Source: a virus
Lineage: Duplodnaviria; Heunggongvirae; Uroviricota; Caudoviricetes
IMG/VR virus record: IMGVR_UViG_2718217807_000001
DNA: 64,000 nucleotides
Direction: 5' to 3' (one strand)
Below the pieces are notes generated by a model. The model saw only the letters and a program-made list of their open reading frames with translations. It ran no database searches and was not told where the DNA came from. Of this stretch, positions 22,162 through 29,102 are shown piece by piece; position 1 is the first letter of the stretch, and each line of letters opens with the position of its first letter. Both the position numbers and the translations under genes were made by a program.

Positions 22162-22241
22162 GCCCTTAGTTTGCTCGCAGCTGGTGGAGACGCGTTGAAG
22201 CCAGCTGTTAATCATAGGTTCGAATCCTGTGACGGGCGCCA
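22162..22241 (+). ncRNA. Second tRNA-like element (GGTTCGAATCC T-loop + CCA), non-canonical
   Basis: T-arm ATAGG-TTCGAAT-CCTGT followed by 7 nt + GCCA. A 7-bp stem CAGCTGG/CCAGCTG encloses a 16-nt loop. The acceptor pairing is imperfect. Confidence 0.25.
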
Positions 22242-22441
22242 AATCTAAGACGATGTGATTCCATACATCTCTTAGTGTCGAGGCCAAAATGGTGCGGCCA
22301 TCAACCGCATAAACAGCCATTATGCCCGAGCCACAAGCCTCGTCTGGCACTAACGTAAAGTGCAAGTAGCGTGAAATTCAGGTAGTGCGACCAGAAAAGT
22401 AACGCTGCGAACCATACAAATAAACTACAAAGAGAAAACAC

Positions 22442-23262: not shown

Positions 23263-23733
23263 ATGTTAAGGCGTGCGGTGCTTTTATTACCTATTTTGTT
23301 CTCGATACCTGCTGCAAATGCTTTGGATGCGAATTATGAAAACTGTCTAAAGAAAACATCTAGCAGAGGGGATGTAGATGGATTCAGAAGCTGCGTAATT
23401 AGCCACATTAACAAGGGGAATACAAACAGAGTATTGCCCAATGGGTTAATTTTAAAAAATATTAGCCATTCAAACGGATTTTTAATAAAGAATTTGAAGA
23501 TAGAAGGCATAAAGTATGAGAAAGGTGATCCAGACTCCGAGCGTGCAAAGGCTAGTTTTATTGAATCTGTAGAAAGCACAAATGAAAGAGCTATTCAGAT
23601 TCATGCATACTGTGTAACTCTCGCAAAAGAATACAGAAAAATATTTAATGATGGCGCAATGATAAGATACTACGACCAGCGTGACAGGGTCATATACACC
23701 TCTTATGTGAAAAGTCGAGAATGTAATCCCTAA
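23263..23733 (+). CDS. Secreted hypothetical protein (AT-rich moron)
   Basis: Signal peptide ending ANA|LD. 156 aa. Low GC. Confidence 0.45.
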   Translation: MLRRAVLLLPILFSIPAANALDANYENCLKKTSSRGDVDGFRSCVISHINKGNTNRVLPNGLILKNISHSNGFLIKNLKIEGIKYEKGDPDSERAKASFIESVESTNERAIQIHAYCVTLAKEYRKIFNDGAMIRYYDQRDRVIYTSYVKSRECNP

Positions 23734-25909: not shown

Positions 25910-26089
25910 TTTCAGGGCCAGTTTCGCCCCTCAAGTTCCGATAATATTGGCAGATCCGAGAGACTGATTGTTTCTTTGAAATGGCCATCGATTACAATCA
26001 AGAGCCAACTAAGACACAATCTCTTAATGAGTATTAATAGTTGGGGGCGCTATTTCGTGAAAAGGATAAGTTCGGATTTGTTAAATAGT

Positions 26090-26110
26090 AAAGCCTCTTT
26101 CGAGGCTTTA
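26090..26110. terminator. Putative bidirectional terminator hairpin
   Basis: AAAGCCTC-TTTC-GAGGCTTT lying between convergent gene sets. Confidence 0.4.
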
Positions 26111-26221
26111 CTTTAGGCTTTAGACAGAAGCTTCTCTTTACCTTTTCTCTGAAAAAAGTCATGAGTTTCTTTCATACGAGCCGCTTTCAACCGAAGAGCC
26201 TCTTCCAGTGTCAGAGGTTCT

Positions 26222-26719
26222 TTACGAGTTTTCTTTGGTTTTAAATTCAATGACATACCCTCTTCCTCCTGGTTCTAAATGAGTGTGGATCTTATCGATT
26301 CTGTCGCTAAATTCATGTCTTAACTTCATTAGCGTTCGCATGTAAAGCCGTGACAGAGCTGGCGAGTACGCCAAGAACGTATAACAATATGGCCTATGCC
26401 TATTGTAGTGGTAGATGATAGCACGGTCAATTATTGTACCAAGCTTGTTCGGGTCGTAAGACTTCGGTGGTTCGAACGAGGTGCCTTTTTTGATGTTGCT
26501 GACGAGGTCGAAGGCGATTTCGTAACATCCACCCATTTGATTCAGGAGTGTCGGCCGGACTCCAGTGAGAATGCCGTCCGGGATCTCTAAAAGAGAGTCA
26601 TCATAATCAACAATTTCGTTGAAGTGTACTTCATATACTTCAGGTGGGGTACCTACGGTATACAACATGCGATGCCGACCGTCAGGCATTAAGGCCTGCA
26701 ACTTGCTGAACATATGCAT
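26222..26719 (-). CDS. Hypothetical protein, paralog A of the minus-strand island
   Basis: 165 aa. Shares the blocks FEPP/FEKPPG, (Y/L)TF(L/E)AYS(P/A)(A/E)L(S/N)R(L/V)Y and H(L/I)E..G.YVI with the 26999-27490 protein. Confidence 0.5.
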   Translation of the reverse strand: MHMFSKLQALMPDGRHRMLYTVGTPPEVYEVHFNEIVDYDDSLLEIPDGILTGVRPTLLNQMGGCYEIAFDLVSNIKKGTSFEPPKSYDPNKLGTIIDRAIIYHYNRHRPYCYTFLAYSPALSRLYMRTLMKLRHEFSDRIDKIHTHLEPGGRGYVIEFKTKENS

Positions 26720-26825
26720 AATGATTGCTTATAAGTCTTATGAAACATGTGCAGGAAGGGATACCATTTCCGCAGAGAATCATTGCTTCGGAAGAAGAAT
26801 GCGCTTGGTCTTGATAAATGGTAAA

Positions 26826-26856
26826 CAAAAGGCTCCCATTGGGAGCCCTTTTCGTT
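26826..26856. terminator. Bidirectional terminator hairpin
   Basis: AAAAGGCTCCC-ATT-GGGAGCCCTTTT. Confidence 0.55.
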
Positions 26857-26868
26857 TAGCTGATTGAA

Positions 26869-26994
26869 TCAGACAGCAATCGGCTTAGTCACAACCTGCC
26901 CGTTCTGCTCAGCTTTCTTCTTAGCCTGCAGGAAACGCTGGATCATATCGTTCTTCTGAGCGCGGATTGCGTCGTAATTGATGTTCTTGTTCAT
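26869..26994 (-). CDS. 41-aa basic helical micro-protein (MNKNINYDAIRAQKNDMIQRFLQAKKKAEQNGQVVTKPIAV)
   Basis: Not in the supplied ORF track (<60 aa). Starts 5 nt downstream of the stop of the 26999-27490 gene on the same strand. Confidence 0.35.
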   Translation of the reverse strand: MNKNINYDAIRAQKNDMIQRFLQAKKKAEQNGQVVTKPIAV

Positions 26995-26998
26995 TTTC

Positions 26999-27490
26999 TC
27001 AGTTACTCGTCCGTATAACATAGCAAGCCCCCTCAATGTGTACTATCAGGTTCTTGTCCTGTGCATACTTCCTAACAAGTCGGTTATAGACTCGGTTCAG
27101 TTCTGCTGAGTATGCTTCAAATGTCAAAACTTGGATGCGTTCAGTTTCGGATATTCGAAGAATAATGTCAATTAGTGTTCTGTAAAGGTACTGCATCTCC
27201 GAAGGGTTCAGATCTGGCGCACCAGGTGGTTTCTCAAACATTGAATCACAAGCTTCATTGCTTTCGGCCTCGATGTTGTAAAAACTCACTACACTTATTG
27301 ATAGTGTAGCAAGTTCTGCACCAAAAAGTTGATTCAAGGTGCCATTTTCAGATTGGTCTTCGGCACAGAAAACTAACCTGAATGTAATCTGCCTGGTTTC
27401 ATCGCCTGAAAAAGTGAAGCAAACATCCGTATACTTAAAAACCTCAAAACCTTGCAATTCATCGTGCAAGATTTCGTGAAAATGCTTCAT
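26999..27490 (-). CDS. Hypothetical protein, paralog B of the minus-strand island
   Basis: 163 aa. Conserved blocks shared with 26222-26719. Confidence 0.5.
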   Translation of the reverse strand: MKHFHEILHDELQGFEVFKYTDVCFTFSGDETRQITFRLVFCAEDQSENGTLNQLFGAELATLSISVVSFYNIEAESNEACDSMFEKPPGAPDLNPSEMQYLYRTLIDIILRISETERIQVLTFEAYSAELNRVYNRLVRKYAQDKNLIVHIEGACYVIRTSN

Positions 27491-27646
27491 ATCTTTCTCT
27501 CTAAGATTAAGACTAATTGCTGAGAGGGTGGAAAAGTTGTAGTCATTCTACAGCAAAATTAAAGGGATGGGAGTAGTTCCGCACAGTTTTGCAAATCACT
27601 AAAAGATATACGCAAAAAAATTTAGTTTCCATTAAAACGCCCTTTT

Positions 27647-27677
27647 GTGATTCCATACTATATAAGTATGGAATCAC
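27647..27677. promoter_or_regulatory. Perfect 13-bp-arm palindrome GTGATTCCATACT-ATATA-AGTATGGAATCAC. Candidate operator.
   Basis: Located in the divergent intergenic region between the minus-strand island and the recombinase gene. Confidence 0.4.
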
Positions 27678-27708
27678 AGTGAAAAAGAGGGTACATTGCC
27701 GTTGACCG

Positions 27709-27732
27709 ATACAGTTAAATACAGTTAAATAC
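27709..27732. repeat. Tandem direct repeat ACAGTTAAAT x2
   Basis: Immediately upstream of the recombinase GTG start. Confidence 0.5.
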
Positions 27733-27763
27733 TGTTTATTCATACAGTGTTACGGAGGCGCAA

Positions 27764-28798
27764 GTGTATAATTCTTTTGATATTGACCGTGCATCAGAAA
27801 ATTGCTCCGCCGAAACTGTTGAATATTTGAAACAGTGCCAGGCCTTGACCGGAAAACAGATTATCTCACTCAGAGGCGATTCGTCGTTCGATGAGGCATT
27901 TATGCTTTTTACACGGCTGTCGTTGCTGGTGACTCGCCGCCGCCCGGAGCTTGGCGTTCACTGCATACTGATCCACGCTATGCCGGTGATTGGCGGAATG
28001 AAAGTTGAAGACATGAACCGCCTGGCAATCAACCGTCTGATCAATGCGCTCGTTCTGGATGGTAAGCTAGTCCAGAGCCGCCGTGTATTTTCTGTTATTA
28101 AACAGTTTCTTGGTTGGTGTGAGTTCCAGGGTATTATCGAGTCGTCGCCACTCGCCACGATGTCTCTAAACAAAGTGGCTGGCGGAGCAAAACCAAAACC
28201 GCGGGAACGAGTGCTTAGCGACGATGAGCTGGAGAAATTTTGGCATATGTGGGATTTTGCTGAAGTGTCAGAAAGTACGCGCTGGGCGGCTCGCTTTATT
28301 CTTTGCTCAGCCAGAAGACCTGATGAAGTTCTCCGGGCCAGACGAGACGAGTTCGACCTTCATAAAGATGTATGGAATCAGGGTGAGCGCAACAAATCTG
28401 GCCGCGATCACTCTCTCCCTATCAGTCCAATAATGAGGATGTGCATCGACAAAATGATAGACGCCGCTGGTGACAGTGAGTGGCTCGTACCGTCCCCAAA
28501 GACTACCGCGAAGCCAGCGTCAAAGGTGATGGTGGCACAAGCCTCGCGGCGGATAATGGCGAAGAAATATCTATCAGACGCTCTACCGGAACCGTTTGAA
28601 ATCAGAGATTTAAGACGGACAGCCAGAAGCTCACTGTCCAGACTTAACGTAGATCAGGATGTGGCCCGTAAGATAATGAACCACAGCCTTGAGGGGATAG
28701 ATCGCGTCTACAACCGACACGACTATATGGATAGGATGATCGAGGCAATGTTAGCTTACTCTGATTTTTTGATGGAAAAATGTAAAATCAATCAGTAA
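27764..28798 (+). CDS. Tyrosine recombinase / integrase
   Basis: 344 aa. C-terminal catalytic region with conserved R, H-x-x-R and Y (RDLRRTARS ... NHSLEGIDRVYNRHDY). GTG start. Confidence 0.6.
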   Translation: MYNSFDIDRASENCSAETVEYLKQCQALTGKQIISLRGDSSFDEAFMLFTRLSLLVTRRRPELGVHCILIHAMPVIGGMKVEDMNRLAINRLINALVLDGKLVQSRRVFSVIKQFLGWCEFQGIIESSPLATMSLNKVAGGAKPKPRERVLSDDELEKFWHMWDFAEVSESTRWAARFILCSARRPDEVLRARRDEFDLHKDVWNQGERNKSGRDHSLPISPIMRMCIDKMIDAAGDSEWLVPSPKTTAKPASKVMVAQASRRIMAKKYLSDALPEPFEIRDLRRTARSSLSRLNVDQDVARKIMNHSLEGIDRVYNRHDYMDRMIEAMLAYSDFLMEKCKINQ

Positions 28799-29102
28799 TG
28801 CCTAGTTTTTTCTTCATTTCATCGTTCTCTTGCTTCAGCTTTTGGATGAATTGGTAAACCTCTGGCTGACGTTCAGCGAGGTACATCATCATAAACTCGT
28901 CAGGTGGTGCGCCAACCGATTTGGCAAAAGGAATTACCTTATCGATAGAAAGATGAGCGCGGCCAGATTTGATAAGAGAGATGTTATTGGCATTTTCAAA
29001 ACCAATCTCTTTGGCCACCTGGACTTGCGTCTTACCACAGGTCAACATAGCTGCGGTCATAAATGGACGATAACGACCTTTTGACTCTTGCATGAAATTC
29101 AC
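28788..29102 (-). CDS. XRE-family HTH transcriptional regulator (repressor-like)
   Basis: 104 aa. HTH_XRE pattern QVQVAKEIGFENANNISLIKSGRAHLS. Divergent from a long AT-rich region at 29103-29697. Confidence 0.55.
   Translation of the reverse strand: MNFMQESKGRYRPFMTAAMLTCGKTQVQVAKEIGFENANNISLIKSGRAHLSIDKVIPFAKSVGAPPDEFMMMYLAERQPEVYQFIQKLKQENDEMKKKLGITD

Follow-up and report, generated by a model that had tools for sequence, protein, structure and literature searches.

Two tandem pairs of overlapping large and micro-protein genes in an SSU5-like phage-plasmid: putative toxin-antidote or defence cassettes

What is the purpose of a short block of genes that runs against the gene train of a phage-plasmid and encodes proteins of no recognised kind? 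Such a block lies beside a tyrosine recombinase gene at positions 26113-27490 of a 64,000-nucleotide (nt) stretch, here called the window, of the Caudoviricetes record IMGVR_UViG_2718217807_000001. A preliminary description had seen in it two paralogous proteins flanking one micro-protein open reading frame (ORF), and had proposed a defence or anti-defence module. Our results lead to the conclusion that the conserved unit is a pair, formed by a large gene and an overlapping micro gene, which is present twice. We read the two pairs as putative addiction or defence cassettes of the toxin-antidote type, a tentative reading to which we give somewhat less than an even chance.

The region is 100% identical to the Klebsiella oxytoca plasmid pCAV1099-111 (NZ_CP011594.1, 111 kb, non-mobilizable), and a few other Klebsiella plasmids of ~110 kb match it at 94-99% identity. 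By gene content and synteny the element groups with S. Typhi pHCM2 and E. coli pLF82/phage Cyrano as an SSU5-like phage-plasmid. Common to this set are a primase, a ligase, grxA, a vWA/'porphyrin biosynthesis' protein, a tyrosine recombinase (int) and an XRE regulator.

A gene pair present twice

The interval from the plus-strand gene train to the recombinase gene contains four minus-strand ORFs, which we call A, a, B and b. The two large ones, A (26999-27490, 163 amino acids (aa), acidic, isoelectric point (pI) 4.7) and B (26222-26719, 165 aa), are present as first described, and both are predicted to adopt a GNAT-like fold, a divergent one for A. Each is followed by a micro gene that overlaps its 3' end. 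The first, a (26869-27021, 50 aa from the ATG at 27021), encodes a basic, helical, DUF5486-like protein and overlaps A by 23 nt; the second, b (26113-26256, 47 aa, helical and very basic, pI 10.35), overlaps B by 35 nt. We refer to A with a as cassette 1 and to B with b as cassette 2. The preliminary description overlooked b and took the block for a trio; what co-occurs in other genomes is the pair rather than the trio, and each pair is also found alone elsewhere. It had also described a as an unannotated ORF of 41 aa that begins 5 nt after the stop codon of A. An ORF of this length is present (26869-26994), but RefSeq carries both micro-proteins (a as WP_254919872.1 and b as WP_176678772.1), the distance is 4 nt, and from its likely start a overlaps A instead.

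The start of the micro gene is embedded in the large gene in a conserved manner. In nearly the whole superfamily, B/b included, the ATG of the small ORF spans a Tyr codon and the Val or Ala codon that follows it (TAT-GTx or TAT-GCx) in a C-terminal strand of the large protein ('G-x-x-Y-[VA]-I'), part of its last beta-hairpin. The exceptions are Proteus, which has a Tyr-Phe junction and an upstream ATG, and Citrobacter, which has an Asn-Val junction. A GGAGG-like Shine-Dalgarno sequence is encoded within the preceding Gly-rich codons of the large gene in both pairs: GAGGGGG at 27028-27034, inside A, precedes the ATG of a, and AGGAGGA at 26264-26270 precedes the ATG of b at 26256. Across loci the overlaps measure 17-44 nt. 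Because relatives conserve the embedded ATG and Shine-Dalgarno sequence, the start of a given by RefSeq and the preliminary description (26994) is probably nine codons short, and the true start is likely the upstream in-frame ATG at 27021. This arrangement would couple translation of the large and small products. Part of the invariance of Tyr157 and Gly154 in A can be explained in the same way. A programmed +1 frameshift joining A to a was considered and rejected, as the conserved Shine-Dalgarno sequence and ATG favour independent initiation.

Homologues of A number 31, and all of them come from Enterobacterales; the B family has 13. We examined more than 25 distinct intact loci, from the A and B families, the Cyrano-like subfamily (35% identity) and, at the greatest distance, P0054 and P0047, which came from an exhaustive profile search. 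In all of them an overlapping small ORF lies 3' of the large gene, and none has an intact large gene without its small partner. A-type pairs are found in pHCM2, Cyrano, prophages of K. aerogenes, an integrative and conjugative element (ICE) of Pantoea, and loci of Morganella, Atlantibacter, Providencia, Acerihabitans, Pectobacterium, Kalamiella and Proteus, among others. The small ORF of Y. enterocolitica encodes 47 aa (MLYERTTKMNTNINYNAIKTQKNEMLQRFLQAKKKAEQAGQVVAKPI). For the B type, a Tatumella morbirosei locus encodes a 48-aa homologue of b, and further homologues of b occur in Raoultella and others. A further 32 metagenomic and viral loci gave the same picture of a pair.

Both micro-ORFs are real protein-coding genes, because they are under strong purifying selection: the non-overlapping core of a has a nonsynonymous divergence (dN) of 0.1-0.2 with synonymous divergence (dS) saturated, and for b and its Tatumella homologue the corresponding proportions of differing sites are 0.24 (pN) and 0.69 (pS). 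Conservation of the micro-ORF, which the preliminary description had named as a check, was thus borne out. Identities of the two partners fall in step from relative to relative (large/small 69/77, 60/56, 36/42 and 25/24%), and their charges are complementary (A -11, a +5.5). The small ORF is missing from the retrieved annotation tables of Cyrano (locus L012, 4494-4655) and pHCM2 (locus L041, 3461-3604). Two consequences therefore hold regardless of function: annotation pipelines overlook the small partner in some records, and the conserved embedded start revises the RefSeq call of 41 aa to 50 aa.

The block runs antisense to the flanking plus-strand genes, as was first reported. Downstream of a, a strong intrinsic terminator hairpin on the minus strand (26827-26851, -19.9 kcal/mol, z -4.1), followed by the U-tract UUUUGUUU, is predicted to terminate in both directions and sets cassette 1 apart from cassette 2. 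A terminator-like hairpin with a weak U-tract follows b (26087-26112, minus strand, -17.9 kcal/mol, z -6.8) and lies between convergent genes. The idea that terminators bound the block on both sides stands for these two hairpins and fails on the upstream (int) side, where none was found. Similarly, the block is AT-rich relative to the gene train (G+C fraction 0.40-0.455 against ~0.50), but it is no island, as its left flank (24.8-26 kb) is as low at 0.39-0.41. B has two possible starts and may be only 155 aa long, since the Met equivalent to 26689 (MPDGRHRM...) is where several homologues begin. Neither ATG (26719 or 26689) is preceded by a clear Shine-Dalgarno sequence, and the stretch from the terminator at 26827-26851 to B showed no sigma-70-like promoter.

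Pairs of this kind occupy very different sites. In pHCM2 and Cyrano/pLF82 the slot beside int holds one A-type pair only, in K. variicola and Citrobacter plasmids a B-type pair only, and in pCTHL.F3a, as in the window, both. The slot is thus variable among SSU5-like phage-plasmids, in agreement with the earlier view of the block as accessory cargo. The A-type and B-type pairs of pCTHL.F3a stand in tandem and are each ~34% identical to those of the window; since so divergent an element also has both, their association is presumably old. Other settings are the end of a prophage, where the pair adjoins int, ICE cargo flanked by traC and traU, and a P2-like remnant. The Morganella pair is part of a defence island, with Csy genes on one side and, on the other, a ThsB-like TIR protein (E 6.6e-30) and PDC-M50A. 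Housekeeping regions, too, have isolated insertions of a pair. Atlantibacter has one downstream of glyA and Tatumella one that separates malG from malQ; another is a neighbour of an alkaline phosphatase gene, and in Yersinia the pair lies, with an AraC/GyrI-like gene, between rsxC and rsxD. An identical Y. enterocolitica protein is indexed in ~2,467 blocks of the assembly collection, and the rsx insertion therefore appears widespread in this species.

Two of these neighbourhoods deserve a description of their own. In Y. enterocolitica (loci L003-L007, 4946-6613) the AraC/GyrI-like gene and the A-type pair, in opposite orientation, split the rsx/rnf operon. At a K. aerogenes prophage end (locus L035, 1282-2171) a CapH/CapP-like regulator pair, comprising a helix-turn-helix protein and an M78 peptidase (PADLOC capH 4.6e-10, capP 1.1e-10), lies ~800 nt upstream of the A-type pair, between a host gene and the prophage integrase; it is absent from the sister locus L038.

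Predicted fold of the large proteins and families of the micro-proteins

The sequence blocks that A and B were said to share are supported by BLASTP (32% identity over 91 aa, E 8e-4) and by profile-profile comparison (E 3.5e-5, probability 72%, over the C-terminal 61 columns). Four residues, F85, F124, Y135 and Y157, are invariant in a joint alignment, and the AlphaFold2 models of the two proteins have an identical order of secondary-structure elements. A search with a hidden Markov model of the A family, exhaustive over 1.84 billion representatives, returned only 25 proteins and did not reach B. The alignments, the models and the embedded start common to both pairs point to ancient homologues, not a recent duplication; the two proteins are related as first supposed, but as distant relatives rather than recent paralogues.

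Both models (A, pLDDT 79 and pTM 0.75; B, pLDDT 74.6 and pTM 0.74) contain the core arrangement of the GNAT fold, beta4-alpha3-beta5-alpha4-beta6-beta7 in a mixed beta-sheet. Fold matches include TacT2, TacT3, Mu Mom, PanZ and the non-enzymatic antizyme. In place of the canonical loop that binds coenzyme A, strand beta4 and helix alpha3 are linked by a low-confidence loop of ~26 residues with a conserved F-x-K/P-P, and bulky aromatics stand at the start of alpha3, which reads E-x-x-Y-L/F-Y/F in the A superfamily and K-L-G/S-T-I-I in B; the KPPGAP of A is not conserved superfamily-wide. An invariant Tyr of alpha4 (Y135 in A, Y126 in B) falls, by eye only, at the position of the common GNAT general-acid Tyr. 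A by-eye motif-B alignment found no support in an hhalign comparison of the A family with RimI and is kept as a structural analogy only. PDB sequence-profile searches gave chance matches only, and a BFVD fold search gave weak, uncharacterised matches only. We therefore call A and B proteins of a predicted GNAT-like fold and do not class them as acetyltransferases.

Scans of A, B, a and b against Pfam, NCBIfam, PADLOC and PHROGs matched only DUF5486 and phrog_2140, both with a, and phrog_28788 (function unknown), with A. Thus A and B belong to no curated family in Pfam, NCBIfam or PADLOC, in line with the preliminary description, which recognised no family for them. The match of a to Pfam DUF5486 (PF17588; E 2.2e-5, 24.7 bits) falls short of the gathering cut-off of 27; that to phrog_2140 is stronger (E 3.5e-11), and close homologues of a bear precomputed PF17588 matches. 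The motif DY-AI---K--M--RF--AK--AE--G-V--K-I is common to the helix of a and to DUF5486, phrog_2140, phrog_10481 and phrog_38350.

The DUF5486-like proteins differ in context between virulent phages and other genomes. In bacteria and temperate elements, every one that we traced has a large partner upstream, to which its translation would be coupled. In virulent phages the domain occurs alone (34 aa, as in Chaseviridae 4HA13 gp81) or after a Cys-rich N-terminal domain (82-85 aa, as in phiEa21-4 gp36 and the 85-aa protein of T4-like Klebsiella phages, which end in the a-like helix motif), and no large gene is adjacent. Homologues of A and B were not found in virulent phages.

The micro-protein b had no match to DUF5486, and the idea that it is a divergent member was dropped when hhalign found no homology between a and b. 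We regard a and b as analogues in position and physicochemical character. In some SSU5-like plasmids the B-type partner is longer (139-168 aa; L043, 2862-3368, in Citrobacter pRHB20-C15_2; L040, 3362-3781; L042, 2856-3275) and has a b-like N-terminus (MSYERQN...AARM) with a C-terminal extension. The N-terminal ~35 aa are conserved and the extensions measure 90-120 aa, the Citrobacter one ending in an AT-hook-like GRGRPRR. With their conserved N-terminus and variable extension these partners resemble modular antitoxins.

Possible functions of the pairs

The toxin-antidote or defence reading is based on the behaviour of the pair, which is inseparable, presumably coupled in translation, co-diverging and charge-complementary, moves as a unit, and is found in cargo hotspots as well as at random housekeeping sites. 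The defence-related neighbours of the Morganella and K. aerogenes pairs also speak for it, as do the modular B-type partners and the virulent-phage homologues of the small partner alone. Two general features of toxin-antitoxin systems are present, namely adjacent, co-directional, overlapping genes that always occur together (more than 25 loci) and a patchy, mobile distribution that includes housekeeping insertions, plasmids and prophages.

If the pairs are cassettes of this type, the block would contain a single kind of compact mobile cassette twice, in tandem, each copy with its own transcription. The large protein would be the effector, harmful or growth-arresting when free, and might act by a non-canonical acyl transfer or bind its target through a remodelled cofactor cleft; the micro-protein would be its stoichiometric neutraliser. 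On the phage-plasmid the cassettes could stabilise the plasmid prophage by post-segregational killing, abort infection by competing phages, or both, and the free-standing DUF5486 proteins of virulent Enterobacterales phages could be decoy antidotes. As to the roles of the two partners, in four decayed loci the large gene is broken and the small ORF intact or nearly so, never the reverse, a pattern which suggests that the large protein is the likelier harmful component.

Several results weigh against this reading. The asymmetry of decay falls short of statistical significance, since mutations are expected to hit the 3.4-fold larger large gene more often. Antitoxins usually evolve faster than their toxins; here the small partner is conserved as strongly as the large one, unlike typical antitoxins. 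No palindrome of at least 8 bp that could serve as an autoregulatory operator is common to the upstream regions of the chromosomal cassettes. The search for a defence component in PADLOC that the preliminary description recommended gave no match for A, a, B or b (PADLOC-DB 2.0.0, E<=1). The a and b families have no detectable homology (hhalign probability 0.9%). DUF5486-like proteins occur in 154 virulent-phage records, against 25 representatives of the large family among 1.84 billion, and this phage abundance is a poor fit to a pure decoy-antidote role. Catalysis by the large proteins is doubtful, since the motif A coenzyme A (CoA) loop Q/R-x-x-G-x-G/A at the start of alpha3 is absent from A and B, 28 superfamily members had no match to Pfam acetyltransferase families at E<=10, and hhalign of the A family with E. 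coli RimI gave a probability of 0.1%, that is, no similarity. In addition, non-enzymatic GNAT-like folds such as antizyme score as well as enzymes do in the fold comparison.

Literature searches gave no match for DUF5486, PF17588, the PHROG families or the WP accessions, and those on GNAT toxin-antitoxin systems and on toxin-antitoxin systems of pHCM2 found nothing on this pair. A DefenseFinder 1.3.0 screen reported no system in pHCM2-like phage-plasmids (bioRxiv 10.1101/2025.09.12.675607); pHCM2-like elements carry the A and a pair.

The leading alternative is a non-toxic complex of enzyme and adaptor, in which the GNAT-fold protein would modify or bind a host or phage target and the micro-protein would activate or direct it, with no killing. 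Its role would then be lysogenic conversion or anti-defence, like that of the GNAT anti-CRISPR AcrVA5 or of Mu Mom. We regard this as doubtful. Pairs are fixed at non-mobile chromosomal sites that have no phage around them (thousands of Y. enterocolitica assemblies are a case in point), and there an anti-defence gene has no obvious use; moreover, patchy, self-contained two-gene insertions are the classic toxin-antitoxin pattern, and the CoA-binding signature is absent. With regard to the putative defence or anti-defence role first proposed, anti-defence is the less likely half, because the pairs are fixed at non-mobile chromosomal sites in Y. enterocolitica, Atlantibacter and Tatumella.

A more specific form of the toxin-antidote reading, which we consider unlikely as a whole, is that the pairs represent a previously unrecognised toxin-antidote or abortive-infection class. 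A degenerate GNAT-fold effector would be held inactive by a micro-protein whose start is hard-wired in the last beta-strand of the effector, and DUF5486 would have been captured by T4-like, FelixO1-like and Chaseviridae phages as a counter-defence decoy. If this were true, it would give the first function for DUF5486 and a new defence and counter-defence pair in Enterobacterales.

The roles of the two partners could also be reversed, with the basic micro-protein as a toxin or host-targeting peptide and the GNAT-fold protein as its neutraliser, acting by sequestration or by modification of the Lys-rich helix in a type VII-like manner. In that case the antitoxin gene would come first, which is the canonical order, and translation would be coupled; the conserved Lys-rich motif AKKKAEQ of the micro-protein could be the acyl acceptor, and the stand-alone DUF5486 proteins of virulent phages would fit an effector that needs no partner. 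However, the intact or nearly intact small ORFs beside destroyed large genes in the four decayed loci, a small sample, would be lethal if they encoded a toxin. The large protein has no CoA loop, and the large, variable C-terminal extensions of B-type partners are more like those of a modular antitoxin. We therefore judge the reversal improbable.

Finally, that the pair is a lysogeny or recombination accessory, helping to control the recombinase, the repressor or the phage-plasmid life cycle and leaving remnants in chromosomes, seems very improbable in spite of its constant place beside int and the XRE gene in SSU5-like elements and an intergenic region shared with a lox-like repeat and a LexA box, since pairs far from any recombinase have intact ORFs under purifying selection, the slot holds A-type pairs, B-type pairs or both, unlike a core regulator, and family scans found no DNA-binding domain in A, B, a or b. 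A ribosomally synthesised, modified peptide with its modifying enzyme was set aside, as the peptide is hydrophilic and exporter and leader logic are lacking.

Should the preferred toxin-antidote or defence reading hold, the pairs would be the first identified addiction or exclusion module of SSU5-like phage-plasmids, among them pHCM2 of S. Typhi and pLF82/Cyrano of adherent-invasive E. coli. The repertoire of GNAT-fold toxins would gain a lineage without the canonical CoA loop, and the micro-protein would be a clean case of a conserved, functional protein of ~50 aa with a start codon dual-coded in its partner gene. A role for the DUF5486 proteins, widespread in virulent phages but uncharacterised, would also suggest itself.

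Surroundings of the block and comparison with known systems

The tyrosine recombinase gene int (27764-28798, plus strand) adjoins the block and is followed by the gene for the XRE-type regulator (28788-29102, plus strand), as had been noted. The region between A and int contains a perfect inverted repeat of 13-14 bp with an asymmetric spacer of 5-7 bp (27646-27678; TGTGATTCCATAC-TTATATA-GTATGGAATCACA), which is conserved in Cyrano/pLF82, pHCM2 and pCTHL.F3a and absent upstream of the chromosomal cassettes. A role of this repeat as a toxin-antitoxin operator was rejected, because it occurs only in SSU5-like backbones and thus is better described as a lox-like backbone site. Given its lox/FRT/dif-type geometry, it may be a candidate resolution site of the adjacent recombinase, in the manner of Cre/loxP.

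A consensus LexA box (CTGTTTATTCATACAG) lies at 27732-27747, 17 nt upstream of the GTG start of the recombinase gene and directly 3' of a plus-strand TTGACC-17-TTAAAT promoter-like element that faces int (27702-27747 for the two together); both Cyrano and pHCM2 conserve the box. Control of the cassette by the SOS response was rejected, because the box follows the promoter facing int and was assigned to int and not to A. The sequence instead suggests that the 'integrase' of SSU5-like phage-plasmids is SOS-regulated. The promoter spacer also contains a 10-bp direct repeat (ATACAGTTAA, twice, 27709-27728).

Two further features lie to the left of the block. A plus-strand ORF of 156 aa (23263-23733, G+C fraction ~0.35), with an N-terminal segment that resembles a signal peptide (MLRRAVLLLPILFSIPAANA), is a probable further cargo gene inside the gene train. 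At ~22215-22245 a stretch resembles the T-arm and acceptor 3' end of a tRNA (GGTTCGAATCCTGTGACGGGCGCCA); ARAGORN calls no tRNA gene there, and it may be a tRNA remnant, because the syntenic region of Cyrano has genes for tRNA-Ser, tRNA-Thr and tRNA-Asn.

The closest points of comparison are the GNAT toxin-antitoxin systems of type II (TacT/TacA, AtaT/AtaR, KacT/KacA and ItaT/ItaR). In these an upstream gene encodes a ribbon-helix-helix (RHH)/DUF1778 antitoxin of ~90 aa, whereas here a micro-protein of 47-50 aa is encoded downstream and overlaps. No upstream RHH/DUF1778 antitoxin gene lies beside A or B, and the micro-ORF has no match to DUF1778 or RHH. In contrast to the toxins of those systems, A and B have neither a Pfam acetyltransferase match nor the Q/R-x-x-G-x-G/A loop, and no operator was found. 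Antizyme, which acts on ornithine decarboxylase, and PanZ, a regulatory binder of PanD, have no sequence relationship to the large proteins and another context; here the partner is a co-encoded micro-protein.

The toxin-first, translationally coupled type II systems HigBA, HicAB and MqsRA are similar in their overlapping second gene and in their patchy, mobile spread through plasmids and prophages. Their second gene encodes a DNA-binding antitoxin of similar or larger size than the toxin, whereas in the pairs described here it encodes a single-helix micro-protein, and the folds are unrelated. Taken together, the pairs would be of a known kind, that of mobile, toxin-antidote-like cassettes of two genes with a GNAT-fold component; what is new to our searches is the combination of a degenerate GNAT fold with a downstream micro-protein whose start is dual-coded in its partner.

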